From Telmatocola sphagniphila (GTDB lineage: Bacteria > Planctomycetota > Planctomycetia > Gemmatales > Gemmataceae): a stretch of DNA of 32,000 bases. The stretch covers positions 3,900,001 to 3,932,000 of the forward strand of contig NZ_CP074694.1 of assembly GCF_018398935.1 (NCBI RefSeq), in the 5' to 3' direction. This document shows positions 649-26,689 of the stretch, piece after piece. The stretch's first letter is position 1. Each line of letters begins with the position of its first letter. The notes under the pieces are model-generated. The model saw only the letters and a program-made list of their open reading frames with translations. It did not search any database and was not told where the DNA came from. Both the position numbers and the translations under genes were made by a program.

Positions 649-657
649 TCTTTGCAT

Positions 658-689
658 CTCCCGATCGTAACTTCGCTTATGATCGGGAG
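658..689 (+). terminator. stem-loop CTCCCGATC-N14-GATCGGGAG downstream of the small ORF
   Basis: Perfect 9-bp inverted repeat read directly (658-666 / 681-689). There is no clear U-tract, so terminator function is tentative. Confidence 0.3.
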
Positions 690-1942: not shown

Positions 1943-2012
1943 AAAACAATCGCTCACGCGCAGAGCGATCCTTAGAGACTATACTTAACGGACTTCGTTT
2001 CCCTCTGAATTC

Positions 2013-5000: not shown

Positions 5001-5591
5001 CTCAAGATAGTATCGGATCTTTTGTTCTAAATTTTCGCTGTTATATTCCACGTAGTCTTTTTCGGGTACTAGAAATTCTTGTACCTCCCAATTCTCTTCC
5101 TCTTGAAATAGCAAGGCACCCGACGCAATCGCTTCAAATACTCGCTTATTGCATTCACCGCGAATTGAGTGATTAAAAACGATCCTCGCTCGATTAAGCA
5201 ATCTCCTATATTCCTCACCGAAAACTCCGGTTCGGATAACGACGTTCCAATTTTTTGATAAACGCGCAATCTCACCCAGCCAAGACATGCGTTCACTTTG
5301 TACGCAGGGATTTAAATTTCCGACGAAGAGCACATCGATATCTCTCGGGATCTTTTGCCAGGCATGGTCTCTCATTGAGCGGGGAAGACCGAAAAGATTT
5401 CCACTCAAAGCGTGTTGGACATTGTCTTTTTTGAAAATTGCCACTCCGGGCTTATCGGAAATGATTAGATCGCATAAGCCGAAGTGTTTTTTATAATGAT
5501 GCCATTGTAGATTCCAATCCGGCGCAAGACCCACAATTGGAATTGGCAGTTTAAATATTGCTTCAGGTATCTGCTGATAGGCAAGCCACAA
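2013..5591 (-). CDS. multidomain glycosyltransferase: CgeB-like GT + two GT2 domains + C-terminal TPR repeats; probably 5'-truncated
   Basis: 1192-aa ORF. aa 80-230 (VLFVGNLNP...RARIVFNHSIRGECNKRVFEAIASGALLF) is CgeB/GT1-like. aa 450-690 is GT2 (IIILCCNEAAYTRRC, VIDNGSTDET, LLNNDT, FFEDDDLC). aa 722-900 is a second GT2 (LTMMVKNEEANLEDCL, VVDTGSQDRT, WMDADD). aa ~905-1185 are TPR-like repeats. The only start is a TTG at 5591. The frame stays open and coding-like (..LEQLIEDFGKPDLIY) upstream to the transposon end at 5690, with no ATG/GTG. Confidence 0.85.
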   Translation of the reverse strand: MWLAYQQIPEAIFKLPIPIVGLAPDWNLQWHHYKKHFGLCDLIISDKPGVAIFKKDNVQHALSGNLFGLPRSMRDHAWQKIPRDIDVLFVGNLNPCVQSERMSWLGEIARLSKNWNVVIRTGVFGEEYRRLLNRARIVFNHSIRGECNKRVFEAIASGALLFQEEENWEVQEFLVPEKDYVEYNSENLEQKIRYYLEHPKEISEIVENAQSKLDRFTFPKLWKDIEFKIDDNRSLLDDRMEFRLKNENSIMRWDSPLEVMATKFRRSELAGSIPVPQLIELQNRIAALKSNGRDRFDREMPGPYDYFKVEWERTGWSNAGDVEREFAEKKILLLSRISEELAKSTGKIYFFYEAVNFKREMIHTRAALGCALAREGHILAASNYLSQAVKASPFDRQASRAYTQTLQDIQAFREKNRFLLLQQALQKSAPQVVPQEHWFEGMILSGDELTSIIILCCNEAAYTRRCFESLLLHTRSPYELIVIDNGSTDETEFLLQEYSEKFGADRWLMIRNEHNLGFPKGVNQALKVAHGEYVVLLNNDTIVTADWLEALIDWQISAPDQIGLVGPVSNGTRAPQLVIPDYNSLEGISPFAALRKAEYQGHCLETERLTGFCLLGRKTLFDHLGGLDENFGTGFFEDDDLCVRTRKLGLKLLVALDVYIHHEGSCTFKGLKLDTKRLLNENFALFQKKWGDAESAGYRSQSPKAHSQSPSSRIEKDKKRSVSISLTMMVKNEEANLEDCLLSVRDLVDEMIVVDTGSQDRTREIAQRLGAKVYDFPWVDSFAAARNEGLKHATGDWVFWMDADDRVDEANRQKLKELFDSLDNTMASYVMKCLCVSDGPGGAETVVDHVRLFRRDPRLRWRFRVHEQILPDLRSLNAEIRWSDATIRHVGYKDPALRKSKLGRDRRLLELEIAENPSNPFTLFNLGSIHQELGEHQIALDLFRRSLAGSHPSDSIVRKLYALIVQAHRKLGQNDEAFYAVKAGLQVYPQDSELIFLHAMMLRERGDIPGAEACFKDLINTRESNHFASVDTGLRGYKARHNLAILYMEQGRFGDAQEQWQQVLESEPTFLPALAGFAEIAARLNNKAIFESYLQRMSQLGPTGEIEAESLWVRYYMNLNEFSRVRDRLFKAIEKYPQSVLLRTHLTHALLREGKDPQVAQKALLDLLELDPNNAEAKHNLLVLETVGFKSE

Positions 5592-5689
5592 GTAAATGAG
5601 ATCCGGTTTTCCAAAATCTTCAATGAGTTGTTCGAGATCTCGGAGTTTGGAATTGGCAGATAAGGTTAGTTCCGATGATGTATCATAAC

Positions 5690-5754
5690 TGTCCCCTTTC
5701 CTGAAATATCTACCGGTTTAGCCGTTTAAATCGCTATAGGAATTACCTTCTCTT
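5690..5754 (+). repeat. left terminal inverted repeat (IRL)
   Basis: TGTCCCCTTTCCTGAAATATCTACCGGTTTAGCCGTTTAAATCGCTATAGGAATTACCTTCTCTT. It matches the reverse complement of 9376-9440 at roughly two thirds of positions (blocks TGT, CCCCT, AATAT, CCG, TTTAA, AGGAATT, TCTCTT). Confidence 0.65.
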
Positions 5755-5788
5755 TCTTAGGCGGGAATACCGCCAGAAGAGAGGCTAT

Positions 5789-7378
5789 ATGGATGAATTC
5801 AACCAGAATGCATTTGCGGAGAAAAGAGAAGAACAACCGAGAGCTGGTCCGACGGAGGATAGGGACCCGCAGTCCGCGGCTGCCGAAGTGGGGCGGGCGG
5901 AGCCGAGCGCCCCTGAGCGCAGCGAAGGGGAGCGACGCGGAGCCCGCCCCACTTCGGAGTCCTTTCCCGATGCGGGTCTGGATTTATCGGATTCCGTGGA
6001 TTCCGAGGTAGAAGCCAGCCTTTCGAAGCGTAGGGAATTCCACTCGAGGTTATCGGTTCGGGGACCTGTTAAGGGACGGCGTTTGGTGAAAAAACCGACC
6101 GAACCCGTGCCGGCGATGACGGCGGAACAGCGGATTTTGTTGCTGGATACCTGGCAGCGGAGCGGCTTGCCCGCCGGCGATTTTGCTCCTTTGGTAGGCG
6201 TCTCGAAACACACGCTTTACGCATGGAAGAAGCGGTTTGAAATTTCTGGCCCGGCCGGATTGTTGGATCAGCCGCGGGGCAAACCTCCGGGCAGCCGCGT
6301 TCACGAGTTGACCAAGCGTACAATCCTGATGCTCAAAAAATCGAATCCGGAATGGGGGTGTCAGCGGATTAGCGACATGCTATTGCGAGGTCCGGCTTTA
6401 CCGGCGAGTGCTTCGGCGGTGGCCCGGGTGCTGCATGAAGCCGGTTATCAACTGGAGCAGGCTCCGACGCGAGGGCATCCGGACAAGGTGCGGTCCTTCG
6501 AGCGGGCCCGTCCGAATCAGTTATGGCAAACTGATCTTTTCACATTTGTGTTAAAACGTCAGAATCGGCGCGTTCATTTGGTCGGGTTCATGGACGATCA
6601 CAGTCGGTTTTTGGTCGGCTACGGCTTGCATGCGAGCCAGTCATCGGCTTTGGTGCTGGAGGTCTTGCGAGCTTCCATGGCTTCTTATGGAACGCCGGAG
6701 GAGATTCTCACCGACAACGGTACGCAGTATGTGACCTGGCGGGGTAAAAGTGCCTTCTCGAAGGAACTCGAAAAACGGGGCATTCGACAGGTAGTAGCGT
6801 CTCCGCGTCATCCGCAGACTTTGGGTAAGATCGAGCGGTTCTGGGGAACCTTGTGGCGTGAGTGCATCGAGAGTGCAATCTTCATCGACATGGGGGATGC
6901 TCAGCGTCGGATTGGGTTATTCATAGACCATTACAACTTCCAGAGGCCCCATCAGGGGATCGATGGTCTGGTGCCCGCGGACCGTTACTTCGGGGCGGCC
7001 TCGGAAGTGCGTCGGAGTCTTCAAACTCGGGTAGCCGCGAATGCCTTGGAGCTGGCTCGAAACGGGATTCCGAAGCAGCCGTTTTATCTGACCGGCCAGG
7101 TGGGAGGTCAGCCCTTCAGCGTCCATGCGGAAGGGGAACGGATGATCTTGACCCGGCCCGAAGGAGAACGGCGGGAGATAGACTTGGTGCCCCCTCCGCC
7201 GCCGGAATCGACTTCCCGAGACGAGTTGCCCAAGCCGGTCTGTCCGGTCGGCGAGGTGAGCAATCCTCAAAGCTTGGGTTCGGAAGAGCCGTCTTTGCCG
7301 GGGGAATCGCCGTTGGATGAGAGCCTGCGTCTGATCGAGGATATGTGGTCGATCCCGCCTGAGGGAGGTGACTTATGA
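5789..7378 (+). CDS. DDE (rve-type) integrase/transposase, IS481-like single-ORF architecture
   Basis: 529 aa. HTH at LPAGDFAPLVGVSKHTLYAWKKRF. Catalytic-type motifs are WQTDLF (D), ILTDNGTQY (D) and LGKIERFW (E). The first ~100 aa are low-complexity, so the true start may be the internal ATG at 6116 (MTAEQR). Confidence 0.85.
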   Translation: MDEFNQNAFAEKREEQPRAGPTEDRDPQSAAAEVGRAEPSAPERSEGERRGARPTSESFPDAGLDLSDSVDSEVEASLSKRREFHSRLSVRGPVKGRRLVKKPTEPVPAMTAEQRILLLDTWQRSGLPAGDFAPLVGVSKHTLYAWKKRFEISGPAGLLDQPRGKPPGSRVHELTKRTILMLKKSNPEWGCQRISDMLLRGPALPASASAVARVLHEAGYQLEQAPTRGHPDKVRSFERARPNQLWQTDLFTFVLKRQNRRVHLVGFMDDHSRFLVGYGLHASQSSALVLEVLRASMASYGTPEEILTDNGTQYVTWRGKSAFSKELEKRGIRQVVASPRHPQTLGKIERFWGTLWRECIESAIFIDMGDAQRRIGLFIDHYNFQRPHQGIDGLVPADRYFGAASEVRRSLQTRVAANALELARNGIPKQPFYLTGQVGGQPFSVHAEGERMILTRPEGERREIDLVPPPPPESTSRDELPKPVCPVGEVSNPQSLGSEEPSLPGESPLDESLRLIEDMWSIPPEGGDL

Positions 7379-7866
7379 CGACTAATTCCGAGGCGAAAGC
7401 ACCGCGTCGGTCTCGTTCGATAGGAGGTCCAAAACTGGGCGAGTCCTGCGGTCCGCAGGCGAAGCGTCTGGCTTCGGTGATACTGGAGGTACTCGCCGGG
7501 GCTCGCACTCCGACCGATGCGGCCACGGCGGTAGGAATCTCTTTGCCGAATTATTATCAGGTCGAAACGCGTGCCTTGCAGGGATTACTGAAAGCTTGCG
7601 AGCCGCGCCCCCGCGGTCGAGTACGGACCGATGCCAGCGAGTTAGCCTCCTTGCAAAAGGAGAATCAGCGTCTGCAACGGGAACTCGGTCGGCACCAAGC
7701 TCTGGCCCGTGCGTCGCAGCGTGCGGTGGGCCTGGCTCCGCCCCCGACGCGATCGGCTTCGGGAAAGAAGGGGCGAAAACGGCGGACCACCGTGCGTGCT
7801 TTAAGCATTGTCGCTCGGTTGAATCCCGTGCAGCAAGAGGCCCCGAAGGAAGCCGGCGTCCAGTGA
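7375..7866 (+). CDS. transposon accessory HTH/coiled-coil protein (paralog 1)
   Basis: 163 aa, start overlaps the integrase stop (ATGA). TDAATAVGISLPNYYQVETRALQGLLKACEPRPRGR...LQKENQRLQREL aligns with VTEACQILGISEPRYHQLKHQMLAAALEALEPRPAGR...LQKELREREAEL of the next ORF. Confidence 0.7.
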   Translation: MTTNSEAKAPRRSRSIGGPKLGESCGPQAKRLASVILEVLAGARTPTDAATAVGISLPNYYQVETRALQGLLKACEPRPRGRVRTDASELASLQKENQRLQRELGRHQALARASQRAVGLAPPPTRSASGKKGRKRRTTVRALSIVARLNPVQQEAPKEAGVQ

Positions 7867-7900
7867 TAACGATATCGCCCTCGATCGAGGAGGATCGGAG

Positions 7901-8374
7901 ATGCGGGGACGAAAACCGGCGGGACCGGAGTCAGTCGATGAACTGCCCGGTTCCGTCATCGCGAAGGATCGCTTGAAAACGTTGTTGCGGACGATGATCG
8001 GAGAATGCCGGGTGACGGAAGCTTGCCAGATACTGGGCATTAGCGAACCCCGTTACCATCAGTTGAAGCATCAGATGCTGGCGGCGGCCCTGGAAGCCCT
8101 GGAACCGCGTCCCGCCGGTCGTCCGGTTCAAGTGCCTTCGGCGGCGGAAGCGGAGATTCAGAAACTTCAAAAAGAATTACGGGAACGGGAAGCGGAGTTA
8201 AATGTAGCACTAGTCCGCGAAGAACTTGCATCGATATTGCCTCGCGTCGCTAAGTCAGCGACCGAACCAGAGAAAAAAAAACGGAAGCGAGGGCGACCAC
8301 CGGGGGACAAAACGGCCGGCGGCGGCGAGGTTGGGGGCGGCAAAAAGATCGCCGGGAGATCGAAAGGAATCTGA
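7901..8374 (+). CDS. transposon accessory HTH/coiled-coil protein (paralog 2); OrfA-like partner of the downstream integrase
   Basis: 157 aa, GGAGG 8 nt upstream. HTH-like ACQILGISEPRYHQLKHQ, then a coiled-coil and a basic tail. Contains an A9 run (8273-8281) near its 3' end. Confidence 0.75.
   Translation: MRGRKPAGPESVDELPGSVIAKDRLKTLLRTMIGECRVTEACQILGISEPRYHQLKHQMLAAALEALEPRPAGRPVQVPSAAEAEIQKLQKELREREAELNVALVREELASILPRVAKSATEPEKKKRKRGRPPGDKTAGGGEVGGGKKIAGRSKGI
8273..8281 (+). promoter_or_regulatory. candidate -1 programmed frameshift site (A AAA AAA) joining 7901-ORF to 8383-ORF
   Basis: The A9 run is read as AAA AAA AAA in the 7901 frame. The -1 frame (that of 8383..9432) is free of stops from 8254 onward. 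OrfA / -1 / OrfB is the classic IS3-family layout. Confidence 0.55.
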
Positions 8375-8382
8375 GGCGGCGA

Positions 8383-9432
8383 GTGGTCGAGGTAGTGGAT
8401 CGAACGCGGCAACGGGGCTTCTCGATACCTAAGATTGCCCAGCGCTTGCATATGGCAGGTCGCACTCTTCGGCATTGGGTTCAGAGCAATGCGGCGACAT
8501 CTCCTCGACCTTTGGGAAGACCGGTTGTCCGTTCGTCGCGATTGAAGCGAATGGAAGTGCTTGCTCTGTTGGCCGATCTCGGGCCGGCCACCAGCGTGGC
8601 AACTCTCAAAGAGTGCTTCCCGGAAATGACGCGTTCCGAGCTCGAAGACATGCTCAGGCGCTACCGCCGCGTCTGGCGGAAAAGGTATAAACGAACCGGC
8701 TTCCGGCTCAGGTGGACTACGCCGGGAACCGTCTGGGCGATGGATTACACGGAGACGCCACTCATTGATGGAAAGGACCAATACCTGTTGGCAGTCCGAG
8801 ATCTGAGCAGTGGTCAGCAGTTGCTAGCCTGGCCTGTGGCGGCGGCAACTGCCGAGGAAACGCTTGTGGCCCTTCGGTCATTGATCACCCGGGAGGGAGC
8901 CCCGCTGGTACTGAAAATGGATAACGGTTCTCCGTTTATTGCCGAAGTGGTCCAAGAATATTTGCAGCGAGAAGGCGTGTTCGGCTTGTACTCTCCGCCG
9001 AGGAGGCCACAATATAACGGTGCGATCGAAGCGGGCATAGGATCTTTGAAAAGTCGAATCGAACGTAGAGCTGCCTGGGAAGGCCATCCGGAAGTGTGGA
9101 ACGCTGAGGATGTGGAGGCGGCTCGACGGGAAGCCAATGCCTTGGCTCGACCGAGAGGAGGTCTGGGTCCTACTCCCGAGACGCTTTGGAAAAGTCGGGA
9201 GAGAGTCGCAACAGAATCTCGCGATCAGTTCCGAGAGCTTGTTGAAATCCATCGGAACCGAGCTATGGAGGAGGAAGGAAAATCTCCTTCGGGAGTGTTG
9301 CTCGAGCAGGAAGCTCGCCGTATCGATCGAATTGCTTTACGCCGTGCTCTCGTCGATCACGGCGATCTTTTGTTCAAGAGAGGGCCAATTCCTCTAGGAA
9401 TTAAATCGCAAAAAACGGCAAATATTACGTGA
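8383..9432 (+). CDS. DDE (rve-type) integrase, IS3-like OrfB; stop codon 8 nt from the element terminus
   Basis: 349 aa from GTG 8383 (probably also made as a fusion via the frameshift). Motifs are WAMDYT (D), LKMDNGSPF (D) and YNGAIEAGIG (E). Its 3' end lies inside IRR. Confidence 0.85.
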   Translation: MVEVVDRTRQRGFSIPKIAQRLHMAGRTLRHWVQSNAATSPRPLGRPVVRSSRLKRMEVLALLADLGPATSVATLKECFPEMTRSELEDMLRRYRRVWRKRYKRTGFRLRWTTPGTVWAMDYTETPLIDGKDQYLLAVRDLSSGQQLLAWPVAAATAEETLVALRSLITREGAPLVLKMDNGSPFIAEVVQEYLQREGVFGLYSPPRRPQYNGAIEAGIGSLKSRIERRAAWEGHPEVWNAEDVEAARREANALARPRGGLGPTPETLWKSRERVATESRDQFRELVEIHRNRAMEEEGKSPSGVLLEQEARRIDRIALRRALVDHGDLLFKRGPIPLGIKSQKTANIT

Positions 9433-9440
9433 GGGGTACA
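8927..9440 (+). repeat. right-arm repeat, copy 1 (within the complete element)
   Basis: This 514-bp segment recurs at 13309-13822 and 18139-18652. The encoded 161-aa tail differs at 4/161 (copy 2) and 2/161 (copy 3) residues. Confidence 0.95.
9376..9440 (-). repeat. right terminal inverted repeat (IRR)
   Basis: Reverse complement reads TGTACCCCTCACGTAATATTTGCCGTTTTTTGCGATTTAATTCCTAGAGGAATTGGCCCTCTCTT. Pairs with IRL. Confidence 0.65.
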
Positions 9441-10647
9441 CTGGTTAGGCGTAGGCGGGGCTTGGCGTGAAAATCCAACCCTAATAAATGAATGGTTTGA
9501 AGCGAACGATTGCAATCCTTTTAAAGGTGACCTTAATGATGCATTAAGCATCGATGCAAGTAAGTACAGCAACATAGGCACTTTTAATGGTCAATCTTAT
9601 GCACAAGCAGGAGCTGATACGGCAAAAGCAATCAAAGATATGTTGAGTGATACAGCACAATCACTCGTGGTAAATCTGGCTATTCAGTACGGAGCTCCGT
9701 TTTTTTTGAAGACTGTTGAATTCCTTGCGAAAAGCGGTTGGACAGTTGTGAGAGATCAATTCGGGAAAATTATTAGAATCGAAAAGAATGGAATCAAAAT
9801 CACTAGAGCTCAGTTTAAAGATGCGGCAACTGCACAATGTTTCCCAGCAGGAACTTTGGTAGACGCAGAATTTGGTTTGATAAAAATCGAAGAATTAAAC
9901 GTTGGAGATAAAGTTTGGTCATTCGATCACAAAAATCTGGAATGGAAACTAAAGCCAATACTAAATACCTATATCTTGAAATTTGAGAGTGGGTTAGCCT
10001 CCATTTTGGCTGCAGACGAAGTGATTGAAGCTACGGGCGGTCATCCATTCTGGGTGGTTAGAGGCGAATTTTTGGAAAACAGGCCATCTCCAAAAGTCAT
10101 CTCTCCCAGAGAGATAGATGGAAAACTTGATGGTCGCTGGGTATTAGCAGAAGATTTGAAGCCGGGTGACGAACTTTACTCTCGAAATAAATCCAAAGTA
10201 AACGTAGAATCGATTATTATTCGGACGCAACATTTATTTGTATTTAATATACAAGTTGAAGAGTTGGAAAATTATGCAATAACTTCCCTCGGTATTCTCG
10301 TTCATAATCAGAATGCGATTGCTGGATTCGAAGCATACGGTGTAAACCCTCTTCCAGGTACTCGAATCAGGCCACCAGGCATTCCGGATGGTTGGCGAAT
10401 TCGCGGAACGAAATCAAAAGGTGGAATCGAGTACTATAACCCTAATAATCCAAATGAAAGCGTAAGAATAATGCAAGGCAACCCGAACAGTCCATATCCA
10501 AATTCACAAGGGCCATATGTTCGCCAACGGGATGCGGGGGGGAATTATTTACGGCCAGATGGTACTCGTTCGCCATTACCCAATGGCGGAAATAAAGATC
10601 CCGATACTCATATCCCACTTGAAAGATATCCAGGATTTATCCAATGA
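9441..10647 (+). CDS. 5'-truncated polymorphic toxin module 1: pre-toxin region + complete Hint domain + C-terminal toxin domain (family unassigned)
   Basis: The frame is open from 9433, directly after the integrase TGA; the listed ATG is 9640. Hint hallmarks are CFPAGTLV (N-terminal Cys) ... GGHPFWV ... ILVHN (C-terminal HN). A ~110-aa tail follows (GTKSKGGIEYYNPNNPNESVRIMQGNPNSPYPNSQGPYVRQRDAGGNYLRPDG...DTHIPL). The region is AT-rich. Confidence 0.7.
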
Positions 10648-10970
10648 CTCACTATAACAAATCAACGGTATTGTCGGCACTAGATGAATTAGGGAGCCTA
10701 GAAGCTCAAAATCGTCTTTGGCTTTCGGATGGATCTTCAGGAGAAATTTCTTCCTTTGAAGAAGCGATTTGCCAGATATTTGATGCAGGCGTTACACACG
10801 AATTGGAAACACGGCAAGTCCCTGCTCCAAGCTATCTGTTATTCATTAAATTGGACCATTTAATTTCCAAAGTGCCAGAAAATATGCCGCCGAAAGATTT
10901 AATATCATTATCAATAATGACAGAAATAAGAGATTTAGCTGTAAAATTAAAAAACAGCATTACAAAATAA
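10644..10970 (+). CDS. putative cognate immunity protein 1
   Basis: 108 aa. Its ATG overlaps the toxin TGA (ATGA at 10644-10647), implying translational coupling. The product is small and acidic. The call rests on position. Confidence 0.5.
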   Translation: MTHYNKSTVLSALDELGSLEAQNRLWLSDGSSGEISSFEEAICQIFDAGVTHELETRQVPAPSYLLFIKLDHLISKVPENMPPKDLISLSIMTEIRDLAVKLKNSITK

Positions 10971-10974
10971 CGCG

Positions 10975-11030
10975 TGTCCTGGTCAAAAACTGTCCTTTAC
11001 CGCGGTTTGATCGCACTTTGGAATTAGAAT
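10975..11030 (+). repeat. IRL-like left end of a related or derivative element
   Basis: TGTCCTGGTCAAAAACTGTCCTTTACCGCGGTTTGATCGCACTTTGGAATTAGAA shares TGTCC, TACCG(C)GGTTT, ATCGC and GGAATTA blocks, in order, with IRL at 5690. The match needs gaps. Confidence 0.4.
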
Positions 11031-11232
11031 AGCCGAATAGTTATTGAATTGCCAGTCGTCGCTTACGCTGCGAATTTGGTAAGGGAATTGACCTGTTAAG
11101 TCGGTTTTTCCCCGCCGTCTTTGATCGGTGATAAATCGTACCTCGCTCCTACCCCGCCTCGGGTCTGTACAATTTTCCTTTTCCATTTTGCGGTCGCGGT
11201 AGGGACGGGGATTACTCCCCGCCCCCCGCACA

Positions 11233-11265
11233 GATCCGTGCATGCGGAATTACCGCACACGGCTC
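11233..11265 (-). ncRNA. group II intron 1 domain V
   Basis: Minus strand reads GAGCCGUGUGCGG-UAAU-UCCGC-AU-GCACGGAUC. It fits the 34-nt domain V consensus (AGC triad, two-nt bulge, tetraloop) and starts right after the RT stop. Confidence 0.8.
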
Positions 11266-12579
11266 TTACTTCGGGTGTTTGGCATAGAAGCGTTCGTTTG
11301 GAGAAGGATGAAGGATTTTCGGGGAAGCAAGAAGTCGATTGGCGAGAGGGCCGAATCGCTCCCAAATCAAGCGATTTCTCTGGCTCCGACGCCTGAGCGA
11401 CTTATACCAGATACGTACAACTTGAGTGTGAAACGATTGCAGAGCGGGCATGTTCCCTGGGATCGCATGATACTGATAGTACCCTGCCAGCACCTGGCGT
11501 AACCAACTTGCTTGCTCGGGGATTGGTTCGTGCCGCCTTTTCGAAAGCACTTCTTTCACCCGTTGCAAGCGAACCCTCATTCGCTTCTTCGCCGTCTTCC
11601 TTTTCACCAGAAATGTTCTGCTCAATCGTTTTACGCCACAACAATGGGTAAAGCCGAGGAACTCGAACGTTTCTGGTTTCCCTTGGCCACGCTTCTGACG
11701 ATCTTCGCCCGCGAACCGGCCGAATTCGATCAAGCGCGTTTTCTCGGGGTGCAATTCCAGTCCAAATTTCTGGAATCGAGCTTTCAGGTCGAATAGAAAC
11801 CGCTCGGCTTCGCGCCGATACTGGAATCCCAGTGCAAAATCATCGGCATACCGGATAACAATGACGTCTCCGTAGGCATGCTTTTGCCGCCACTGGTGCA
11901 CCCAAAGGTCGAAGACATAATGCAGATACAGATTCGCGAGGAGTGGAGAGACCACTGCCCCTTGAGGTGTACCCATTTTCGTTTCCGACCAGCGACCGTC
12001 TTCGGATACTCCCGCTTTGAGCCATTTCTGGATCAGGCGGAGAATCCTCGGATCGGCGACCCGGTGCTCGACGAATTTCAGCAGCCATTCGTGGTCGATG
12101 GTATCAAAGAAACCCCGAATGTCCGCATCGAGCACCCAATTCACCTTCTTTCCCATGATTCCGACGTGAAGGGCATCCAACGCATCGTGCGCCGAACGCT
12201 TCGGTCGAAAACCGTAGGAAAAACCCACGAAATCCGCCTCCCAAATCTCACTGAGAACCGTCACTATAGCTCGTTGGACTACCTTGTCCTCTAGAGCTGC
12301 AATGCCCAACGCTCGCATTCCTCCGTCCGCTTTTGGTATGTGCGTCCTCCTTACGGGGACAGCTCGATAGCTTCCGGTATGAATGCGGCGATGGAGATCC
12401 TCGATTCGATGAGTTAGACCAATTTCGTACTCCTTCCACGTGACACCATCATTGCCCGGAGCCGCATCCTTCTGCAAGGTTTTGAAGCTCTGAATCATTA
12501 AGGGTATTGTCACATGATGAAGTAAAGCGGTGAATTTTACCTTCTTATCCTTTCGTGCCACTTCTCGCACTCGCTGCAT
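11266..12579 (-). CDS. group II intron reverse transcriptase/maturase (no endonuclease domain evident)
   Basis: RT motifs are KFTALLHHVT, PGNDGVTW, RTHIPKADGGMRALGI and IRYADDFALGF; the C-terminal part is maturase (X)-like. The probable start is ATG 12579 (MQRVREVARK). The 602-aa track ORF (to 13074) reads through intron RNA domains I-III. Confidence 0.85.
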   Translation of the reverse strand: MQRVREVARKDKKVKFTALLHHVTIPLMIQSFKTLQKDAAPGNDGVTWKEYEIGLTHRIEDLHRRIHTGSYRAVPVRRTHIPKADGGMRALGIAALEDKVVQRAIVTVLSEIWEADFVGFSYGFRPKRSAHDALDALHVGIMGKKVNWVLDADIRGFFDTIDHEWLLKFVEHRVADPRILRLIQKWLKAGVSEDGRWSETKMGTPQGAVVSPLLANLYLHYVFDLWVHQWRQKHAYGDVIVIRYADDFALGFQYRREAERFLFDLKARFQKFGLELHPEKTRLIEFGRFAGEDRQKRGQGKPETFEFLGFTHCCGVKRLSRTFLVKRKTAKKRMRVRLQRVKEVLSKRRHEPIPEQASWLRQVLAGYYQYHAIPGNMPALQSFHTQVVRIWYKSLRRRSQRNRLIWERFGPLANRLLASPKILHPSPNERFYAKHPK

Positions 12580-13221
12580 TCCGGATGACGCGTTGGCTCC
12601 GCTCTGTGTCGGAAACGCGACCTTCTGCAGTAAGTTTCCCGATGTTGATAGCCTTCCCTCCATCGTCTCCGCCGGTCTCCGACCTTTGTTCGACGACTTC
12701 TCGGGTACTACGCCATCATCCGACTTCTCAAGGCCGTACATGTCAGGATTATGGGTTATCCCCTTTCCCGACCGATCCGACGAACCATCTTCGACGGATG
12801 AACTTGAGATCTCCCGGTTCCCGCGCAAAGAGTTTTCCCACATGCTCAGGGCCTCCGACTGCGTAGAGTTCCAGGAAGACTCGCCTATGATGCCCTCCTC
12901 GATGTGGCCTTCCGCTTCGGTTAACAGCGTCGGCACCCCAGATGACGTGATTTCGCAGCTCGATACCTGGCCTGTGTGTGCCCCTGTCAACGCTTCACCG
13001 ACAGCCTCGCGACTGGCGGCGTATGACTCGGGGTCGAGATGACTGGCTAAGTCTTCCTCGCGTGACTCTTTCATTCACTACTCCTTGCCGGTTTCGCCGG
13101 CGCACTAACCGTGCTGTGAAATGCGTCCTTGCGTACTTTGCTAGTTGTCCCGAACCGAATTCTGGTCGCATTTGTAGCCGAATTAAAGCTGTAGGGATTT
13201 TGGCATTTTGAAGGGTGTTTT

Positions 13222-13822
13222 GCCGAATACCGGGGAATTTTGGAGCGGTCTGATGACCGAGACCGGGGTGTTGCGATGGGCCGGCGTAGTCCGGCACGAG
13301 GCGCTGCCGTTCGCCGTTTATTGCCGAAGTGGTCCAAGAATATTTGCAGCGAGAAGGCGTGTTCGGCTTGTACTCTCCGCCGAGGAGGCCACAATATAAC
13401 GGTGCGATCGAAGCGGGCATAGGATCTTTGAAAAGTCGAATCGAACGTAGAGCTGCCTGGGAAGGCCATCCGGAAGTGTGGAACGCTGAGGATGTGGAGG
13501 CGGCTCGACGGGAAGCCAATGCCTTGGCTCGACCGAGAGGAGGTCTGGGTCCTACTCCCGAGACGCTTTGGAAAAGTCGGGAGAGAGTCGCGACAGAATC
13601 TCGCGATCAGTTCCGAGAGCTTGTTGAAATCCATCGGAACCGAGCTATGAAGGAGGAAGGAATATCTCCTTCGGGAGTGTTGCTCGAGCAGGAATCTCGC
13701 CGTATGGATCGAATTGCTTTACGCCGTGCTCTCGTCGATCACGGCGATCTTTTGTTCAAGAGAGGGCCAATTCCTCTAGGAATTAAATCGCAAAAAACGG
13801 CAAATATTACGTGAGGGGTACA
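13222..13822 (+). repeat. right-arm repeat, copy 2 (601 bp = 87-bp extra segment + 514-bp arm)
   Basis: 13309-13822 matches 8927-9440. 13222-13308 matches only 18052-18138 and is absent from the complete element. Confidence 0.95.
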
Positions 13823-14249
13823 TTTTTTTGATAGCACAAGAGGTTGGCTCCCTGCTAAATATTTGAAAATCGGAGACCGAATACAAGGCAACGAAAAAGA
13901 GTGGTTATCGATCACAGATTTATTCGAAGACAAAGAAGTAGAACCGGTCTATAACTTAAGAATCGCTGACTATCACACTTATTTTGTTGGAGAAGATTTT
14001 TGGAGCTGGTGCATTTGGGCGCATAATCATTATTTTGAGGTTGGCGCGTTTAATGAATTAAAGCAGATAACGGGCTGGGCGAGGCATCACGTTCCACAAA
14101 CAGTGGTCGCATTGGCTCACGGAGCCACCGATTTTGTGCGAGCAAACGGGCCTGCTATTCGTATACCAGAATGGATGCATAAGGAGATTATTCACTTAGA
14201 GTCTGTTCCAAAAGCCCCTATTTCGGATGAATTTCTCGAGGATTTGTAG
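13823..14249 (+). CDS. 5'-truncated polymorphic toxin module 2: C-terminal part of a Hint domain + toxin domain with HH motif (possible HNH/EndoVII-type)
   Basis: The frame is open from 13815, directly after the arm's TGA. GWLPAKYLKIGDRI...VYNLRIADYHTYFVGE...WAHN aligns with the distal half of the module-1 Hint domain. The ~75-aa tail contains GWARHHVPQ and IPEWMHKEI. Confidence 0.6.
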
Positions 14250-14424
14250 GGTTAGTCCCGGCTTTTGGAACAGACTCTTAACTGAGAGTGGTTTTTTTGC
14301 TAAAGAAGCTGGAAACATTTCACAGCATATTAAAAGTCATTTGCAGCAATTGAGTAACATGGGTGTGCCTAAACAATATTTGCAAGAATTGAAACAACTT
14401 ATAAAGTGGTGGGAATTCGGATAA
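14227..14424 (+). CDS. small ORF overlapping toxin-2 3' end (hypothetical)
   Basis: 65-aa track ORF in the +1 frame relative to toxin 2. The C-terminal part (HIKSHLQQLSNMGVPKQYLQELKQLIKWWEFG) looks protein-like. It is unclear whether it is a separate gene or a frameshifted continuation. Confidence 0.25.
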   Translation: MNFSRICRVSPGFWNRLLTESGFFAKEAGNISQHIKSHLQQLSNMGVPKQYLQELKQLIKWWEFG

Positions 14425-14470
14425 ATTGAACTGAAAAATATTTCTTATTTTATGAGGTATTGGTGACATT

Positions 14471-14944
14471 ATGCACTCGGAGATGATAGAAAATGTCGCC
14501 CTCCATTATTATAACTCCGTTGTTATTGGAGTTATAAGAATGCTCGGGCGAATTCGGGATTTGAATTTGGGCGATTCGCGCAATCCACGTTACAATGACT
14601 TGAAAAAATTGCTTCAAAATTTAAATAAATTTGATCCCGAAGATAAATCTTTGCTGATTTCAGGATTAGTAGCAGTGGCTGAATATTCTTGTTATGCTAC
14701 TGCTGGATTTGTTGAGCATTATAATTCATTTGAATCTGATAACAATAATGATTTATACCCTTCTCTCGTTCTATCGTACAAATATGAAAAAGATGGCGTA
14801 ATTTCATCAGAGGACGTGGCATCATATCAAGACGGCTTCTCAGATGGCTCCTTCGAATCAGCCTTCATGAAAGTTGCATCATCACCTCAAATGAAAGATC
14901 TCGTTCAAAGTAAATTGGTGGAAATATTAGCCAAACTAAATTAG
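14471..14944 (+). CDS. putative immunity protein 2
   Basis: 157-aa AT-rich ORF on the same strand, downstream of toxin 2. The call rests on position; no recognisable motif. Confidence 0.4.
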   Translation: MHSEMIENVALHYYNSVVIGVIRMLGRIRDLNLGDSRNPRYNDLKKLLQNLNKFDPEDKSLLISGLVAVAEYSCYATAGFVEHYNSFESDNNNDLYPSLVLSYKYEKDGVISSEDVASYQDGFSDGSFESAFMKVASSPQMKDLVQSKLVEILAKLN

Positions 14945-14963
14945 CAGAAATTGTTTCTAAGAA

Positions 14964-15024
14964 GCCCTAACAAAATCTCTTTTTATAGCAGTATTCAATG
15001 GACAAATTGTGGTTTTGTTAGGGC
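14964..15024 (+). terminator. long stem-loop GCCCTAACAAAA-N37-TTTTGTTAGGGC after cassette 2
   Basis: Perfect 12-bp inverted repeat (14964-14975 / 15013-15024), 20 nt after the stop of 14471..14944. Confidence 0.35.
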
Positions 15025-15295
15025 CTCTAAGGCTTTGTCTCTTCATCGTCAACGCACACACACTCACACATGTGCCTTGAATTCTATCTAAGAGACTCTA
15101 TCGATGCCTTAAATTGCCGATCGAATAACGCCAAAAACGAGGGTTCTATTAGAGCTTACAGACAATCGATCACATTGCAAACGGATTTGGTCGTTAATCT
15201 CTTGTCAATTCTTCTTGCGAGTTGATATGTGAAATTTAAAGATCGAAAAGAATTCGGAGTATTCCTTCATAACCAGTTCTTGGGATATTAGCGAT

Positions 15296-15712
15296 ATGGA
15301 TGCACTCTACATTCTCAAAAACTCTACTTTTGATAACTTTGAGATTCAGTACTCCCTCCGAAGCCTCCAAACTCATATTCCTTTCATTCGTAAGGTTTGG
15401 GTCTTCGGAGATAAGCCAACATTTCTTTCGTGCAACAAATCGATCATCGAGCATGTGCCTCATGAGTATATGGCAAGTCCTTTGGGTTTTAAATCACCAG
15501 TCACAAATACGTTTCTTATAACATTTCTTGGATCAATAATACCTGGGATGGACGAAGAATTCCTCTGGTTCTGTGATGATTTCTTCCTTCTGAAAGATTT
15601 CCCACCTGAGGAGGCTTGTAAAGATCGCTATTACGAAGATATGTCAAAAGTTACAACTCGAGGTCGACGGGTGACACTGGCACCCCATCTCAATAAACGC
15701 AAGTCGATGTAA
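15296..15712 (+). pseudogene. Stealth-family (capsule phosphotransferase-like) gene fragment, 3'-truncated
   Basis: FEIQYSLRSLQTHIPFIRKVWVFGDKPTFL...IEHVPH resembles Stealth conserved region CR2 (ELRYSLRS...W.R.I.IV). Only ~125 aa of homologous-looking sequence remain. Coding-like sequence ends at ~15668, where the first GGGTGACACTGG motif begins. Confidence 0.45.
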
Positions 15713-16466
15713 AATCTAGACTTGGGTGGCACTGTCTATCTGACAGTGCCATTTAGAACTCACCCATCCTACAACAACAAATCACCCTATTTCAACCCAG
15801 AAGGAATTCATGCCCCGGCGGGTGGCAATGGCAAGCATTCTTAATCAGCGCATGTCGTTATCCAGTAACGGTTTGAGTGGCACTGGCCATCTGCGAGTGC
15901 GTTTCTGCAATAAAGCGTTCTTTCTGCTCGAATTTGTGCCTGAGAGGGTGACAATTCTCTGGCACTTTTTTCTCCCACGCACTGGCAGTTAGCCAGTGCC
16001 ACGCGCCCGTGACTATTCGATACTAGCAGGGTGAGATTCCCTGTCGAAAGGAGGCTTGGCCTTTTGTACCCGAAGGTAACTGCGTCGCCGTGAGGCGGGG
16101 TGGGGAGCAACCCGAGGGGAGCATCTCGTCCGCAATAAAGTGAACTCGTTTCGGCAGCGGATACCGGCGAGCCTGCGTGGCTAAGGCGAAGCTAGCAAAG
16201 CCGGATTGACCGAGAGGTCCGCCAGTGGTTTGGAGAACTAATGGCGACGGCATCATCCCGAGATAAAGCCCCAAGCGAGTCGAGGGAGGTATCCGATGTG
16301 GTTGGAGGCGGAAGGAAAGCGAAGGTATCGAATGTAAGCGGGGATATCCGAGGCGCCGGGGAAGGCAAATGCCTTGTGCGTCGGAAGTCAGAGCGTTCAT
16401 AGTAGCGTAGAAATCGGGTAATACCGAGGGAGCGAAGGGACGTAGGAAGGTGGATTTCGAGGTTAC

Positions 16467-17834
16467 ATGAGCAGGAAAGAGAAACCGTCGTCAGTGCCAG
16501 TGGCTAAGCAAGGCGGAGAAGCCGGCGACCGAACTCCGGGAACCGTTAGTAGGGTCCGAGAGCAATGGTCGTGGGCGGAACCTGCGGTGTGGACTGATCG
16601 GATGTTGAGTGCGCTCGAAGCGGGCGTTAAAGGAGGCGTCTGGTTTAGCTTGATGGACAAGGTGTGCAAGAAGAGGAACCTGAAGTCGTCGGCGACGAAA
16701 GTCATAGCGAATGCGGGTTCGGCAGGCGTGGATCATGTAAGTGTCGAGGCGTTTGCAAATCATTTGGACGAGAACCTGGAAGCTTTGGAGCGGACTTTAC
16801 GGGACGGAACCTACCGTCCTTCGGCGATCCGGCGAGCGGTAATTCCGAAGCCGGGGAGTGAAGAAGGCCGTCCTCTAGGAATTCCGACGGTTCGAGACCG
16901 GGTGGTTCAAGGCGCGATTCGTCAGGTGCTGGAACCGATTTTCGAGAAGGATTTCGCCTCGAATAGTTACGGCTTTCGTCCGGGCCGGGGCTGCAAAAAT
17001 GCCTTGCGAGAGGTGGACAGACTTCTGAAAGAAGGAGGCACGCATCTGGTGGATGTCGACATCAAGGGCTACTTCGACGCGATCGATCACGATCAGTTGA
17101 TGGATGTGCTGAAGCGGAAGATCGCGGACGGAACGCTACTAGGTCTGGTGGAACAATTTCTGAAAGCCGAGATATTCTCGCCGATGGGGAGTTGGGAGCC
17201 AGATTCGGGAGCGCCGCAAGGAGCGGTTTTGAGTCCGTTGTTGAGTAACGCCTATCTGGATCCTTTGGACCATTTGATGGAATCCCTAGGTTTTCGGATG
17301 GTGCGATACGCGGATGACATGGTGATCGTCTGCCGCAGTCGAGCGGAAGCGGAAGAAGCCCTGGCGACGTTGAGCCGCTGGTGCGAATCGGCCAAGCTAC
17401 AACTGCATCCGGAAAAGACGAGAGTGGTGGACACGCAGATCGAGAGTTTCGAATTTCTAGGCTATTGCTTTGGAGTTTATAAAGGACAACGTCTGATATA
17501 TCCTCGGAAGCGAAGTCTGGAGAAACTTCGGGATGCGATTCGCGCGAAAACGAAGCGGAAAAGAGGCGATAGCCTGTCGCAGATCGTCCGCGACGTGAGC
17601 GTAACGCTACGAGGCTGGTACGGATACTTCAAGCACAGCAAAAAGGGGATCTTTCGGGACGTGGATAAATGGACTCGAATGCGGCTGCGGTGCATACTGC
17701 GTCGTCGTCTGGGTCACGATTGCAGAAGCCGAAAGAGAGATAACTTCAAGTGGCCCAAAGCTTACTTTGCCGAGGCGGGACTGTTCTCCCTGGAACAGGC
17801 ACATCGTCTGGAATCTCAATCCCTCAAGGGGTAA
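16467..17834 (+). CDS. group II intron reverse transcriptase/maturase (no endonuclease domain evident)
   Basis: 455 aa. Motifs are WTDRMLSALEAGVKGGVWFSLMDKV, AGVDHVSVEAF, RAVIPKPGSEEGRPLGIPTVRDRVVQ and VRYADDMVIVC, followed by a maturase-like C-terminus. Confidence 0.9.
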   Translation: MSRKEKPSSVPVAKQGGEAGDRTPGTVSRVREQWSWAEPAVWTDRMLSALEAGVKGGVWFSLMDKVCKKRNLKSSATKVIANAGSAGVDHVSVEAFANHLDENLEALERTLRDGTYRPSAIRRAVIPKPGSEEGRPLGIPTVRDRVVQGAIRQVLEPIFEKDFASNSYGFRPGRGCKNALREVDRLLKEGGTHLVDVDIKGYFDAIDHDQLMDVLKRKIADGTLLGLVEQFLKAEIFSPMGSWEPDSGAPQGAVLSPLLSNAYLDPLDHLMESLGFRMVRYADDMVIVCRSRAEAEEALATLSRWCESAKLQLHPEKTRVVDTQIESFEFLGYCFGVYKGQRLIYPRKRSLEKLRDAIRAKTKRKRGDSLSQIVRDVSVTLRGWYGYFKHSKKGIFRDVDKWTRMRLRCILRRRLGHDCRSRKRDNFKWPKAYFAEAGLFSLEQAHRLESQSLKG

Positions 17835-17849
17835 GACTACTGACCGGAA

Positions 17850-17882
17850 AGCCGGATGCGGGAGATCCGCCCGTCCGGTTTG
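17850..17882 (+). ncRNA. group II intron 2 domain V
   Basis: AGCCGGAUGCGG-GAGA-UCCGC-CC-GUCCGGUU matches the domain V consensus and lies 16 nt after the RT stop. Confidence 0.8.
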
Positions 17883-18051
17883 GAGGGAAGGGGGAGCCAT
17901 TAACTCCTCCTAGCCCTATACGGAAATTGGACGAGGATTGAGTCCTACAATTCGCAAAGATCAATAAAAAAAACAGCAAGTAACCAGTGCCACCCAAACT
18001 GTTACTCAATAACGACTTGAGTTGATTTAGTTAGGTTACCAGTGCCACCCC

Positions 18052-18652
18052 GCCGAACACCGGGGAATTTTGGAGCGGTCTGATGACCGAGACCGGGGTG
18101 TTGCGATGGGCCGGCGTAGACCGGCACGAGGCGCTGCCGTTCTCCGTTTATTGCCGAAGTGGTCCAAGAATATTTGCAGCGAGAAGGCGTGTTCGGCTTG
18201 TACTCTCCGCCGAGGAGGCCACAATATAACGGTGCGCTCGAAGCGGGCATTGGATCTTTGAGAAGTCGAATCGAACGTAGAGCTGCCTGGGAAGGCCATC
18301 CGGAAGTGTGGAACGCTGAGGATGTGGAGGCGGCTCGACGGGAAGCCAATGCCTTGGCTCGACCGAGAGGAGGTCTGGGTCCTACTCCCGAGACGCTTTG
18401 GAAAAGTCGGGAGAGAGTCGCGACAGAATCTCGCGATCAGTTCCGAGAGCTTGTTGAAATCCATCGGAACCGAGCTATGGAGGAGGAAGGAAAATCTCCT
18501 TCGGGAGTGTTGCTCGAGCAGGAAGCTCGCCGTATCGATCGAATTGCTTTACGCCGTGCTCTCGTCGATCACGGCGATCTTTTGTTCAAGAGAGGGCCAA
18601 TTCCTCTAGGTATTAAATCGCAAAAAACGGCAAATATTACGTGAGGGGTACA
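18052..18652 (+). repeat. right-arm repeat, copy 3 (601 bp; left side truncated at a CCAGTGCCACCC motif)
   Basis: Collinear with 13222-13822 with a few substitutions. Upstream flanks of copies 2 and 3 diverge immediately 5' of GCCGAA. Confidence 0.95.
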
Positions 18653-18881
18653 GATTCAAGGCCGTATGCCTGAAAATTTGGCAGAACAGCTAATTATGGA
18701 AGATGCATTTGAGGACGGCGGCCAAGTGATTATGAAAGGTCCTTTTGGTGATCCTTTGTATCAAGCCCCAGGCTGGGTTAAAAAGCAAATTACGCATACG
18801 CTGCCTGATGGAACAAAGATAGTAGTACATTATATGCACAACACGATTACTGGTGAAATTGCTCAGGTTAAATTCAAGTAG
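18653..18881 (+). CDS. 5'-truncated polymorphic toxin module 3: short C-terminal toxin tip (family unassigned)
   Basis: The frame is open from 18645, directly after the arm's TGA; the listed ATG is 18666. The ~75-aa peptide is ...GPFGDPLYQAPGWVKKQITHTLPDGTKIVVHYMHNTITGEIAQVKFK. It is AT-rich and an immunity-sized ORF follows. Confidence 0.4.
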
Positions 18882-18913
18882 CCTAGTAATTCCCAATTAG
18901 CGAAAGACTGAGA

Positions 18914-19351
18914 ATGAAGATTGAATGTATTTCAAAATCTGCAATCACTTTGCCAGTAGACTTGATTCGTCCCGAGCTCGGACTCGGTAGAGATCGCATT
19001 TTTTCTTTAATTACTGGAAAGCAATATGTCGTATATGGTATTACATGTTACCTCGGTCATTTATGGTACTATATTTGTGATGAAGACTACTCTTACTATC
19101 CAATATGGAACCCGGCCCCATTATTTAGAATAACAGACAATCGAATATCTAAGTACTGGGAAATAGGCGAATATCTAATAGGCTCCTCAGAAATAATCCC
19201 GATTATTTCTTTCAGCGAATGGGTACAAAATCCCATATTTTATGATCTGCTAACAGATAGGGAGCAATCCGCCGTACAAACATTTATAAAATACAAGAAG
19301 TTGATTGATGAAGAATCTAACATAATTGATCAGGATGATGCGCAACTGTAG
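18914..19351 (+). CDS. putative immunity protein 3
   Basis: 145-aa AT-rich ORF, 32 nt downstream of toxin tip 3 on the same strand. The call rests on position. Confidence 0.45.
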   Translation: MKIECISKSAITLPVDLIRPELGLGRDRIFSLITGKQYVVYGITCYLGHLWYYICDEDYSYYPIWNPAPLFRITDNRISKYWEIGEYLIGSSEIIPIISFSEWVQNPIFYDLLTDREQSAVQTFIKYKKLIDEESNIIDQDDAQL

Positions 19352-19357
19352 ACGCTC

Positions 19358-19405
19358 TGTCCTGATCAAAAACCAGTACCGTCCTGGTCGAAAACCATGT
19401 CCAAC
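19358..19405 (+). repeat. GTCCTGRTCRAAAAC motif, two tandem copies, then TGTCC
   Basis: TGTCCTGATCAAAAACCAGTACCGTCCTGGTCGAAAACCATGTCC begins 7 nt after the immunity-3 stop. The same 16-mer (TGTCCTGGTCAAAAAC + TGTCC) begins 5 nt after the immunity-1 stop, at 10975. Confidence 0.6.
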
Positions 19406-26420: not shown

Positions 26421-26689
26421 ACCGCTAACAAAATTCCATCTTTAACGAATTTTCTAGAGTAAGCAAATGTTGTGCCAGACTCTATAAAAATCGAACGAAA
26501 AAACAAAAAATGATTGCCATTTTAGAGTCGTCAAGAGGTAAGCGGATTTTTTTGGGAAAAGATATAGCCGCGTGGGCAGCCACTTTTCGGGATTCGAGGC
26601 GAACGAAAGTCTTATCAAAACGAGCGAAAAAAAAAAGAGCGGTGATAGACTTTAGTTAGTTCATGAAACTCAAATTTTAAGGAGAAGCA

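Follow-up and report, generated by a model that had tools for sequence, protein, structure and literature searches.

In a 32,000-nucleotide (nt) stretch of the genome of Telmatocola sphagniphila (Gemmataceae, Planctomycetota), hereafter called the window, three right termini of one transposon each run without a gap into the 3' part of a different Rhs/PT-HINT toxin gene that has lost its 5' part, and each toxin remnant is followed by a presumed immunity gene. The transposon, element A (5690-9440, plus strand), is a complete four-gene IS481-like DDE element; the toxin and immunity genes downstream of its right end and of two further right-end arms are named cassettes 1 to 3. A sequence-only reading of the window had attributed this arrangement either to mobilization of the cassettes by the transposon or to cassette switching through the arms. 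We tentatively prefer, with a probability of about 45%, an origin in which the transposon truncated toxin genes, the remnants were retained for the sake of their immunity genes, and recombination between copies of the element stacked them.

The arms correspond to the last 514 bp of element A. They were found on the plus strand at 8927-9440 (copy 1, within element A), 13309-13822 (copy 2) and 18139-18652 (copy 3). As had been noted from the sequence, they are directly oriented and nearly identical (98.8-99.0%). The 161 encoded residues, which in copy 2 make up an integrase remnant of 161 amino acids (aa), differ from those of copy 1 at four positions in copy 2 and at two in copy 3. All three arms extend precisely to the end of the transposon, where they share the final 14 bases (...ACGTGAGGGGTACA), and the DNA diverges at the next base. 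What follows is unrelated and AT-rich, also as noted before, with a G+C content (GC) of 38-41% as compared to 58% in element A. That the arms are genuine transposon right ends was confirmed by the termini of element A, which form an imperfect inverted repeat beginning with TGT (TGTCCCC... on the left, ...GGGGTACA on the right) with a score of 25 that was reached by 0 of 2000 shuffles. In addition, the left end, which starts TGTCCCCTTTCC, is homologous to the left ends of relatives (L001, L002, L031 and others).

Arm copies 2 and 3 have in common a further 87 bp upstream (13222-13308 and 18052-18138), which are absent from copy 1. The resulting arm units 2 (13222-13822) and 3 (18052-18652), both on the plus strand, are 98.2% identical over 601 bp, and an in-frame stop is present at 13287 within the 87-bp stretch of unit 2. 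Since the two units share the same junction to these 87 bp of foreign DNA, they are copies of one already-truncated 601-bp fragment. They lack the rest of the integrase, with neither start nor catalytic part. The three arm copies form a star phylogeny with one, five and four private changes in copies 1, 2 and 3, respectively. As these changes are mostly non-synonymous (four of five in copy 2, two of four in copy 3), arms 2 and 3 are decaying relics. Gene conversion between once-complete tandem copies would be the simplest idea for their shared boundary. The 601-bp unit was also considered as a mini-transposon, which was rejected because its left boundary has no inverted-repeat (terminal-repeat) similarity.

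The toxin fragment of cassette 1 (9441-10647, plus strand; annotated open reading frame (ORF) 9640-10647) comprises a pre-toxin stretch, a full PT-HINT domain (about 9823-10311; Pfam, 5.3e-13) and a tip (about 10333-10644). This tip, i.e., the last ~100 residues, is 57-76% identical to the C-termini of the RHS-repeat proteins P0125, P0128 and P0145, and in proteins of this type the tip-1 homologues come after the hallmark end of the Rhs core. Cassette 2 (toxin fragment 13823-14424, plus strand) begins inside PT-HINT (Pfam, 1.3e-9; profile positions 66-136 of 137) and carries the C-terminal half of this domain plus tip 2. It has 2654 homologues, including long proteins matched near their C-terminus (P0204, 1423 aa, at 1242-1371). 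Its tip aligns to P0167 and P0173 in two frames (13824-14198 and 14272-14412), so that either the gene is frameshifted or the reference contains a homopolymer error. In both of two public runs, short-read contigs start at 14277. Cassette 3 consists of a tip without Hint (18653-18881, plus strand; annotated ORF 18666-18881). It has only two database relatives, one of which, P0165 (69% identical), is an orphan in an array of RHS fragments (contig L065). The annotated ORFs of cassettes 1 and 3 are the NCBI proteins KIH39_15545 and KIH39_15590 of the 6.59-Mb contig. The module contents described by the sequence-only reading were thus recovered, i.e., a full Hint domain and tip, a partial Hint domain, and a tip only, each followed by a small ORF; the toxin homology of the cassettes was likewise supported.

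The putative immunity genes 1 (10644-10970; 108 aa; its start overlaps the toxin stop codon) and 2 (14471-14944; 157 aa), both on the plus strand, were assigned by position only, and no family match was found for their products. Putative immunity gene 3 (18914-19351, plus strand; 145 aa) has a homologue (58% identical) located directly after the tip-3 homologue in L065; the pair is therefore conserved. Pfam (at E-values up to 5) and PDB sequence searches with the tips and immunity proteins returned nothing meaningful. Because tips 1 and 2 have counterparts at the C-terminal ends of long Rhs or PT-HINT proteins and tip 3 recurs in an RHS orphan array, the three cassettes can, judged by homology, be regarded as genuine polymorphic-toxin C-termini, with at least one partner gene as a conserved companion. 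A full-length toxin sharing the pre-toxin region of cassette 1 was found neither among Telmatocola proteins, none of which besides cassette 1 itself was among its homologues, nor in the window, where no Rhs or other toxin ORF exists elsewhere.

A 16-mer (TGTCCTGGTCAAAAAC; 10975-10990, plus strand) starts 4 nt after the stop codon of cassette 1, and two further plus-strand copies follow cassette 3, one with a single mismatch (19358-19373), starting 6 nt after the stop codon, and one with two mismatches at 19380 (19380-19402). The sequence-only reading had seen this repeat, although its spacing of 5-7 nt was not correct. The 16-mer is part of a 22-nt motif that occurs after cassettes 1 and 3, not after cassette 2. 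The motif alignment was reached by 2 of 2000 shuffles, and the motif is absent from 66 loci, including 62 loci of relatives. The next stretch, 10991-11165 (TGTCCTTTACCGCGGTTTGATCGC..., plus strand), had been described as a left-end-like repeat. Its similarity to the left end of A is weak, with a local alignment score reached by 111 of 2000 shuffles. A repeat boundary at 10991 is nevertheless suggested by the independent short-read contig L067, since it ends at 11020, 30 nt past this position, and 10991-11165 is probably the terminus of a repeated element "B".

Right ends and Rhs fragments across the transposon family

The four-gene order of element A recurs in metagenome contigs and at 59 genome loci, and the hosts of these relatives are mostly Planctomycetota metagenome-assembled genomes (MAGs), with some Acidobacteriota and others. 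All open frames of 142 related loci were searched by phmmer with 193 toxin homologues; 80 metagenome contigs formed a second, independent set in this survey. An earlier tblastn survey with the window's own cassettes had found no toxin near the relatives, a false negative that was overturned by phmmer. In the genome set, right ends were joined directly to co-oriented, 5'-truncated Rhs ORFs in L018 (Acidobacteriota), L024 (Gemmataceae), L025 and L040 (both Planctomycetia), and co-oriented Rhs fragments were located 1-3 kb downstream in L017, L030, L041, L046/47 and L051. Pfam RHS_repeat matches and the DPxGL core-end motif identified these fragments as Rhs. The metagenome set contributed five more direct junctions (L093, L096, L104, L128 and L143) and two co-oriented fragments further downstream of right ends. 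Altogether, twelve direct right-end junctions were found in at least eight genomes or samples.

The two sides of the transposon were compared at loci with at least 3 kb of flank, i.e., 30 right ends and 18 left ends. A toxin fragment was present within 3 kb of 10 of the 30 right ends, as compared to 1 of the 18 left ends; the left-end hit is the L025 cassette, with a half-element on either side. Almost all toxin-like ORFs (23 of 24) were co-oriented with the transposon. The link between right ends of the family and Rhs fragments is real, biased in side and orientation, and not a local accident; relatives adjoin such fragments far more often than expected by chance, which supports this part of the sequence-only reading. 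This reading had also named arms flanking arbitrary DNA in random frames as evidence against itself. At the level of the family, this holds for most copies.

The 5' half of the toxin gene was absent from the opposite side in five of five two-sided cases (element A, L018, L024, L025 and L040), and among the left ends sampled, none was entered by the reading frame of a toxin 5' half. L040 is only about 0.2% different from four sister copies and must therefore be recent. In L025, the right end is followed by an Rhs core end, a tip, a 237-aa ORF and the next left end. In MAG MFD05442 (L030, L046, L047 and L057), solo truncated arms are interleaved with Rhs fragments. The apparent repeat of truncated arms in L046/L047 was considered as transposition and proved to be a 7.6-kb segmental duplication. 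In L017, L018, L024, L040 and L041, the 6 kb beyond the cassettes contained no second right or left end, and inspection of the right-end flanks yielded no convincing target motif. The left flanks of relatives carry a serine recombinase, another rve insertion sequence and a TIR-domain defense-type gene.

Several loci show further peculiarities. In L024 (7027-11232), a second Rhs orphan (9445-11232) with a 388-aa core and its own tip has no arm before it; thus, an ordinary orphan array continues past the transposon. In L023 (5455-10983) and L025 (5485-11301), which belong to one MAG, a right half-element (157-aa gene, integrase gene and right end) is followed by a 2-kb variable spacer and a left half-element (left end, transposase gene and 163-aa gene). 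Their outer boundaries are sharp and lie at the junction of the two small genes, so that the arrangement resembles a circular permutation of element plus spacer. The spacer of L025 is an Rhs tip cassette.

Origin of the array

According to the explanation that we favor slightly over cargo capture, the array would have arisen in three steps. First, members of the family would truncate rhs-type toxin genes at their right end, either by insertion or by transposon-mediated adjacent deletion. Second, the part encoding tip and immunity protein would survive because toxin-producing kin select for the immunity gene, and the 5' part of the toxin gene, which is of no use, would be lost. The immunity genes could be transcribed by putative read-out from the last gene of the transposon, which would also explain why the toxin remnant is nearly always co-oriented. 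Third, recombination between element copies in direct orientation would have placed three units of right end, tip and immunity gene one behind the other, with the geometry of IS26-type arrays. The inner copies would then have decayed through an internal deletion, probably spread by gene conversion, and through the acquisition of two group II introns and a miniature inverted-repeat transposable element (MITE).

Signs of decay are the apparent frameshift in cassette 2, the introns, the MITE, the truncated arms, a truncated Stealth gene and IS66 fragments. They fit relics rather than a working switch. Cassette switching as proposed by the sequence-only reading is not supported, as the window has no full-length toxin to switch into, arms 2 and 3 are decayed and cassette 2 is frameshifted. 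Its other proposal, mobilization through the arms, is in keeping with the family-wide link and with the bracketing of cassette 1 by a right end and a repeat boundary.

Several observations weigh against truncation followed by selection. The 5' half is missing in every two-sided case, so its loss has to be assumed each time, and co-mobilization would be simpler. Simple shuffling of flanks by recombination fails to explain the asymmetry, as there is no left end with a toxin 5' half. Scans for consensus promoters and terminators gave no more matches than shuffled sequence. Arms 2 and 3 share the truncated left boundary, yet the DNA differs on both sides of them, so that a further event, e.g., gene conversion, has to be assumed. 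Nor does this scheme account for the 22-nt motif that follows two unrelated immunity genes. Finally, L110 of the metagenome set is a mirror image, with a toxin remnant at the left end reading outward.

The alternative that survives best, which we regard as possible though rather unlikely, is dedicated cargo capture. Here, the family would shuttle toxin-tip/immunity cassettes on its right flank, and the array would be a platform of successive captures. Cassettes could move as a composite of the left end of a full copy and a downstream solo right end, e.g., arm 2 or 3, or as circles of element plus cassette that re-enter beside a copy. The missing 5' halves at all five two-sided junctions, including that of the recent L040, would be explained more economically by capture. 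The strong right/left asymmetry and the strong co-orientation are also in its favor, as is the isolation of the array, which lies in a polysaccharide gene cluster; a full-length toxin is not found nearby, and the pre-toxin region has no match in any other Telmatocola protein. Moreover, what remains of the Rhs core is short (mostly <300 aa) and in this resembles orphan modules. With regard to a composite, the left end of A and the right termini of arms 2 and 3 are intact with cassettes 1 and 2 between them, the inner copies being truncated; either of these arm termini could stand in as the right end. Cassette 1 is bracketed by a right end and the repeat boundary, the L025 cassette by a right end and the left end that follows. 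In the five other loci inspected for it (L017, L018, L024, L040 and L041), however, no second end follows within 6 kb. Ordinary DNA adjoins most copies of the family, no cassette was found at more than one site, and the left boundary of arms 2 and 3 is unlike a transposon end. With cassette 2 frameshifted and the arms decaying, nothing looks currently active, and a direct sign of movement was not seen.

It is improbable that the junctions are unrelated accidents in a neutral junkyard, where mobile elements pile up by chance in dispensable AT-rich foreign DNA. The richness of the window in mobile DNA (two introns, the MITE, IS66 fragments and the truncated Stealth gene) would fit such a scenario, as would the mobile DNA in the left flanks of relatives, the AT-rich cassettes and the random reading phases in relatives. 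A chance pile-up does not explain the co-orientation of 23 of 24 toxin-like ORFs, the excess of toxin fragments at right ends (10 of 30 vs 1 of 18), the twelve direct right-end junctions in at least eight genomes or samples, and 5' halves that were never seen.

The reading phase across the junction suggested a further explanation. As the sequence-only reading had pointed out, no stop interrupts the toxin frames from the codon next to the integrase TGA onwards, and they stay open for 404, 144 and 78 codons in cassettes 1, 2 and 3, respectively (the open frames of cassettes 1 and 3 start at 9433 and 18645). The chance of such a match is 1/9 for any shared phase and 1/27 for phase 0. If the phase were functional, the TGA would be read through, bypassed or ancestrally absent, resulting in integrase-toxin fusions, for example as an addiction module. 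We consider this very improbable, even with three of three window junctions in phase 0 and a relative, L002, in which the integrase stop is TGG instead of TAG (9164-9197) and the frame leaves the element and runs 10 codons into flanking DNA. Phases 0, 1 and 2 were used in a ratio of 3:5:1 at nine right end-Rhs junctions in relatives, so that phase 0 is no general feature of the family's junctions. Downstream of 25 canonical right ends, long open frames likewise showed no phase-0 excess, and the phase match in the window is therefore best read as a coincidence without function. In addition, a toxin domain was present in none of the top 120 integrase homologues, and no fusion is possible from arms 2 and 3, which are without start or catalytic part.

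A mis-assembly of one repeat is extremely unlikely. The short-read contigs are interrupted at the arm, as expected of a multi-copy repeat, and cannot order the copies alone, but the arms have copy-specific substitutions and two different upstream contexts, and contigs from the two runs reproduce, at 99.8-100% identity, both upstream contexts, the left end (L066) and two of the three right-end junctions, i.e., those to cassette 1 (L067, up to 11020) and to cassette 3 (L004 and L005). Thus, the triplication is not an assembly artefact, a possibility that the sequence-only reading had itself raised.

Element A and the surroundings of the array

The four genes of element A are all encoded on the plus strand. 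The first (5789-7378) encodes a 529-aa transposase with helix-turn-helix (HTH), rve and rve_3 domains (Pfam rve, 2.5e-18). Its score of 209 bits against the NCBIfam IS481 family is slightly below the curated cut-off of 224, and that of the second rve protein is far lower. A 32-nt imperfect palindrome (5883-5957; 78% complementary, 11-nt loop) is located inside the 5' part of the transposase frame. The second gene (7375-7866) encodes a 163-aa accessory protein with no recognized domain (no Pfam or NCBIfam match), for which tblastn found 45-85% identity in relatives. The third (7901-8374) encodes a 157-aa HTH protein resembling IS3 OrfA (weak Pfam HTH_28 and HTH_Tnp_1 matches) and is kept in relatives. 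The fourth encodes the second rve protein, the 349-aa "integrase" (8383-9432; Pfam rve, 6.6e-10). It has 1080 homologues, mostly of 382-390 aa, and its TGA and the terminus are 8 nt apart, a distance that recurs between integrase stop and right terminus in most relatives. A natural half-element was found in L031 (5176-7065), which runs from the left end through the 157-aa gene and the integrase gene to the right end, without the large transposase gene and the 163-aa gene.

In the family, the four conserved genes extend over 3.7-4.2 kb, and multi-copy relatives give sharp ends. Target-site duplications were found neither at the window copies nor at seven well-defined copies, five of which are about 0.2% apart in one genome (L037-L040 and L050) and two of which are in another (L017 and L018). 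This is unexpected for an rve-type DDE element, and flanks could thus not be paired by target duplications. With two DDE proteins, two small proteins and no visible target duplications, the family is unusual. Since the short-read contig L066 (5690-8956) has its first base exactly at the left end of element A, the element is probably multi-copy in Telmatocola, with more than one left context in the read set. Further searches gave no match for the arm peptides in species-representative genomes, a scan that apparently did not cover the Telmatocola genome, for the right-end DNA pattern in JGI metagenomes, or for the integrase in a plasmid collection. In an exact-protein look-up, the integrase and the cassette-2 ORF had no record, and five other look-ups led to short-read contigs only.

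Left of element A, the window is occupied by a polysaccharide gene cluster (1-5689). Cassette 1 and its small ORF (9441-10970) and the 16-mer with the left-end-like sequence (10975-11165), all on the plus strand, are followed by a group II intron on the minus strand (approximately 11165-13078), which lies between cassette 1 and arm 2. It was recognized by Rfam models RF02005 (group-II-D1D4-6; 12849-13069, 179 bits) and RF00029 (11193-11267) and by its reverse transcriptase/maturase (354 bits). A stretch of 143 bp without assignment separates it from arm unit 2, after which cassette 2 and its small ORFs (13823-14944, plus strand) follow. Between cassette 2 and the MITE-like unit lies a truncated Stealth_CR2 gene (15296-15712; capsule phosphotransferase-like), which may be a displaced piece of the polysaccharide cluster.

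The MITE-like unit (15816-18055) has 72-bp inverted ends (15816-15886 and 17984-18055), which are 79% identical over 72 bp in a self-BLAST, and abuts the left boundary of arm unit 3. It carries the second group II intron (about 16003-17948, plus strand; RF00029 at 17847-17919; reverse transcriptase, 370 bits). The two introns differ, both have intact-looking reverse transcriptase/maturase ORFs, and each has an arm unit a short way downstream. At 15669-15734, the MITE end occurs a third time in a weaker form, and the motif CCAGTGCCAC recurs in hairpins around the MITE-like unit. Cassette 3 with its small ORF (18653-19351, plus strand) is the last of the three. A T-loop-like string near 19460 was considered as a tRNA or att site and discarded, as neither ARAGORN nor Rfam gave a match. 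Mobile DNA is also found further to the right (25166-29014), with an IS66-family transposase fragment (25602-26150) and a DUF3854 protein (27413-29014).

Relation to known systems and significance

The view of the sequence-only reading that no equivalent has been described was too strong. IS-like H-rpt elements of the ISAs1 family sit inside E. coli Rhs loci. Transposase-flanked effector/immunity pairs are known as well, e.g., for MIX V effectors (PMC4549250), and recombinase-associated immunity arrays (rAID-1) of Bacteroidales carry integron-like repeats (bioRxiv 10.1101/471110). In addition, insertion-sequence sites adjoining poly-immunity clusters are mentioned in the literature.

The closest parallel in content is provided by the orphan arrays of Rhs and contact-dependent inhibition (CDI) systems. 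These arrays were reportedly described by Jackson et al. in 2009, Poole et al. in 2011 and Koskiniemi et al. in 2014 as being formed by C-terminal displacement. In both cases, 5'-truncated toxin C-termini with AT-rich polymorphic tips stand in tandem and in the same orientation, each with an immunity gene behind it, which in Telmatocola is a presumed one, and the pair of tip 3 and immunity gene 3 occurs as an orphan pair in a true Rhs array (L065). Classical orphans, however, keep a part of the toxin's conserved core as 5' homology and are located downstream of a full-length gene with which recombination is possible, whereas the 5' homology in Telmatocola is transposon DNA, and the locus lies in a polysaccharide cluster without a parent gene nearby or among the proteins of the genome. 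It would work like an orphan toxin/immunity array minus parent gene and toxin-derived 5' homology and, because it has neither of these, fails a defining feature of classical orphans.

With H-rpt and MIX V-type pairs, the locus has in common that insertion sequences or transposases lie within or flank toxin/immunity loci and are invoked for horizontal spread. In those systems, the toxin genes are complete or the insertion sequence lies between modules. Like IS26-type arrays, with their pseudo-compound transposons and translocatable units, the window has directly oriented element copies alternating with different cargo and no matching target duplications; arrays of this type can grow by recombination beside an existing copy. 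IS26 differs as a single-gene member of the IS6 family with a demonstrated conservative targeted reaction, whereas element A is a four-gene IS481-like transposon with truncated inner copies. In rAID-1 arrays and integrons, a recombinase or integrase gene is also followed by an array (in rAID-1, of orphan immunity genes) with repeated intergenic sequences, which points to active acquisition of genes. They use a tyrosine recombinase and short repeated sites; in Telmatocola, rve-type DDE enzymes adjoin the array, the repeat is 514-601 bp of transposon, and the 22-nt motif follows only two of the three cassettes. IS481 of Bordetella pertussis has a related type of transposase (209 bits) and is likewise multi-copy; recombination between its copies reshapes the genome, and its outward transcription can drive neighboring genes. 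It has one gene in 1 kb and makes 6-bp target duplications; in contrast, the family of element A has four genes, spans 3.7-4.2 kb and showed no target duplications at the seven well-defined copies. We know of no description of one transposon terminus being fused exactly and repeatedly to beheaded toxin genes, with a bias in side and orientation across phyla, and such fusion to beheaded Rhs genes by one transposon family looks new.

Warfare between strains and kin discrimination are driven by orphan toxin tips and immunity genes, whose route from genome to genome is poorly understood. It is unlikely that the four-gene IS481-like family, as found in Planctomycetota, Acidobacteriota and other soil and freshwater bacteria, is a dedicated vehicle that captures, moves or stacks the 3' ends of Rhs toxin genes. 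If it were, it would be a DDE-transposon counterpart of integrons and rAID arrays and the missing vector for orphan tips and immunity genes. If the bias for Rhs 3' ends is true, it would mean either a recurrent knock-out of a costly toxin with the immunity kept, i.e., "immune cheaters", or a vehicle that spreads cassettes. Either reading would provide a testable handle in the Planctomycetota, a phylum in which such systems are essentially unstudied.

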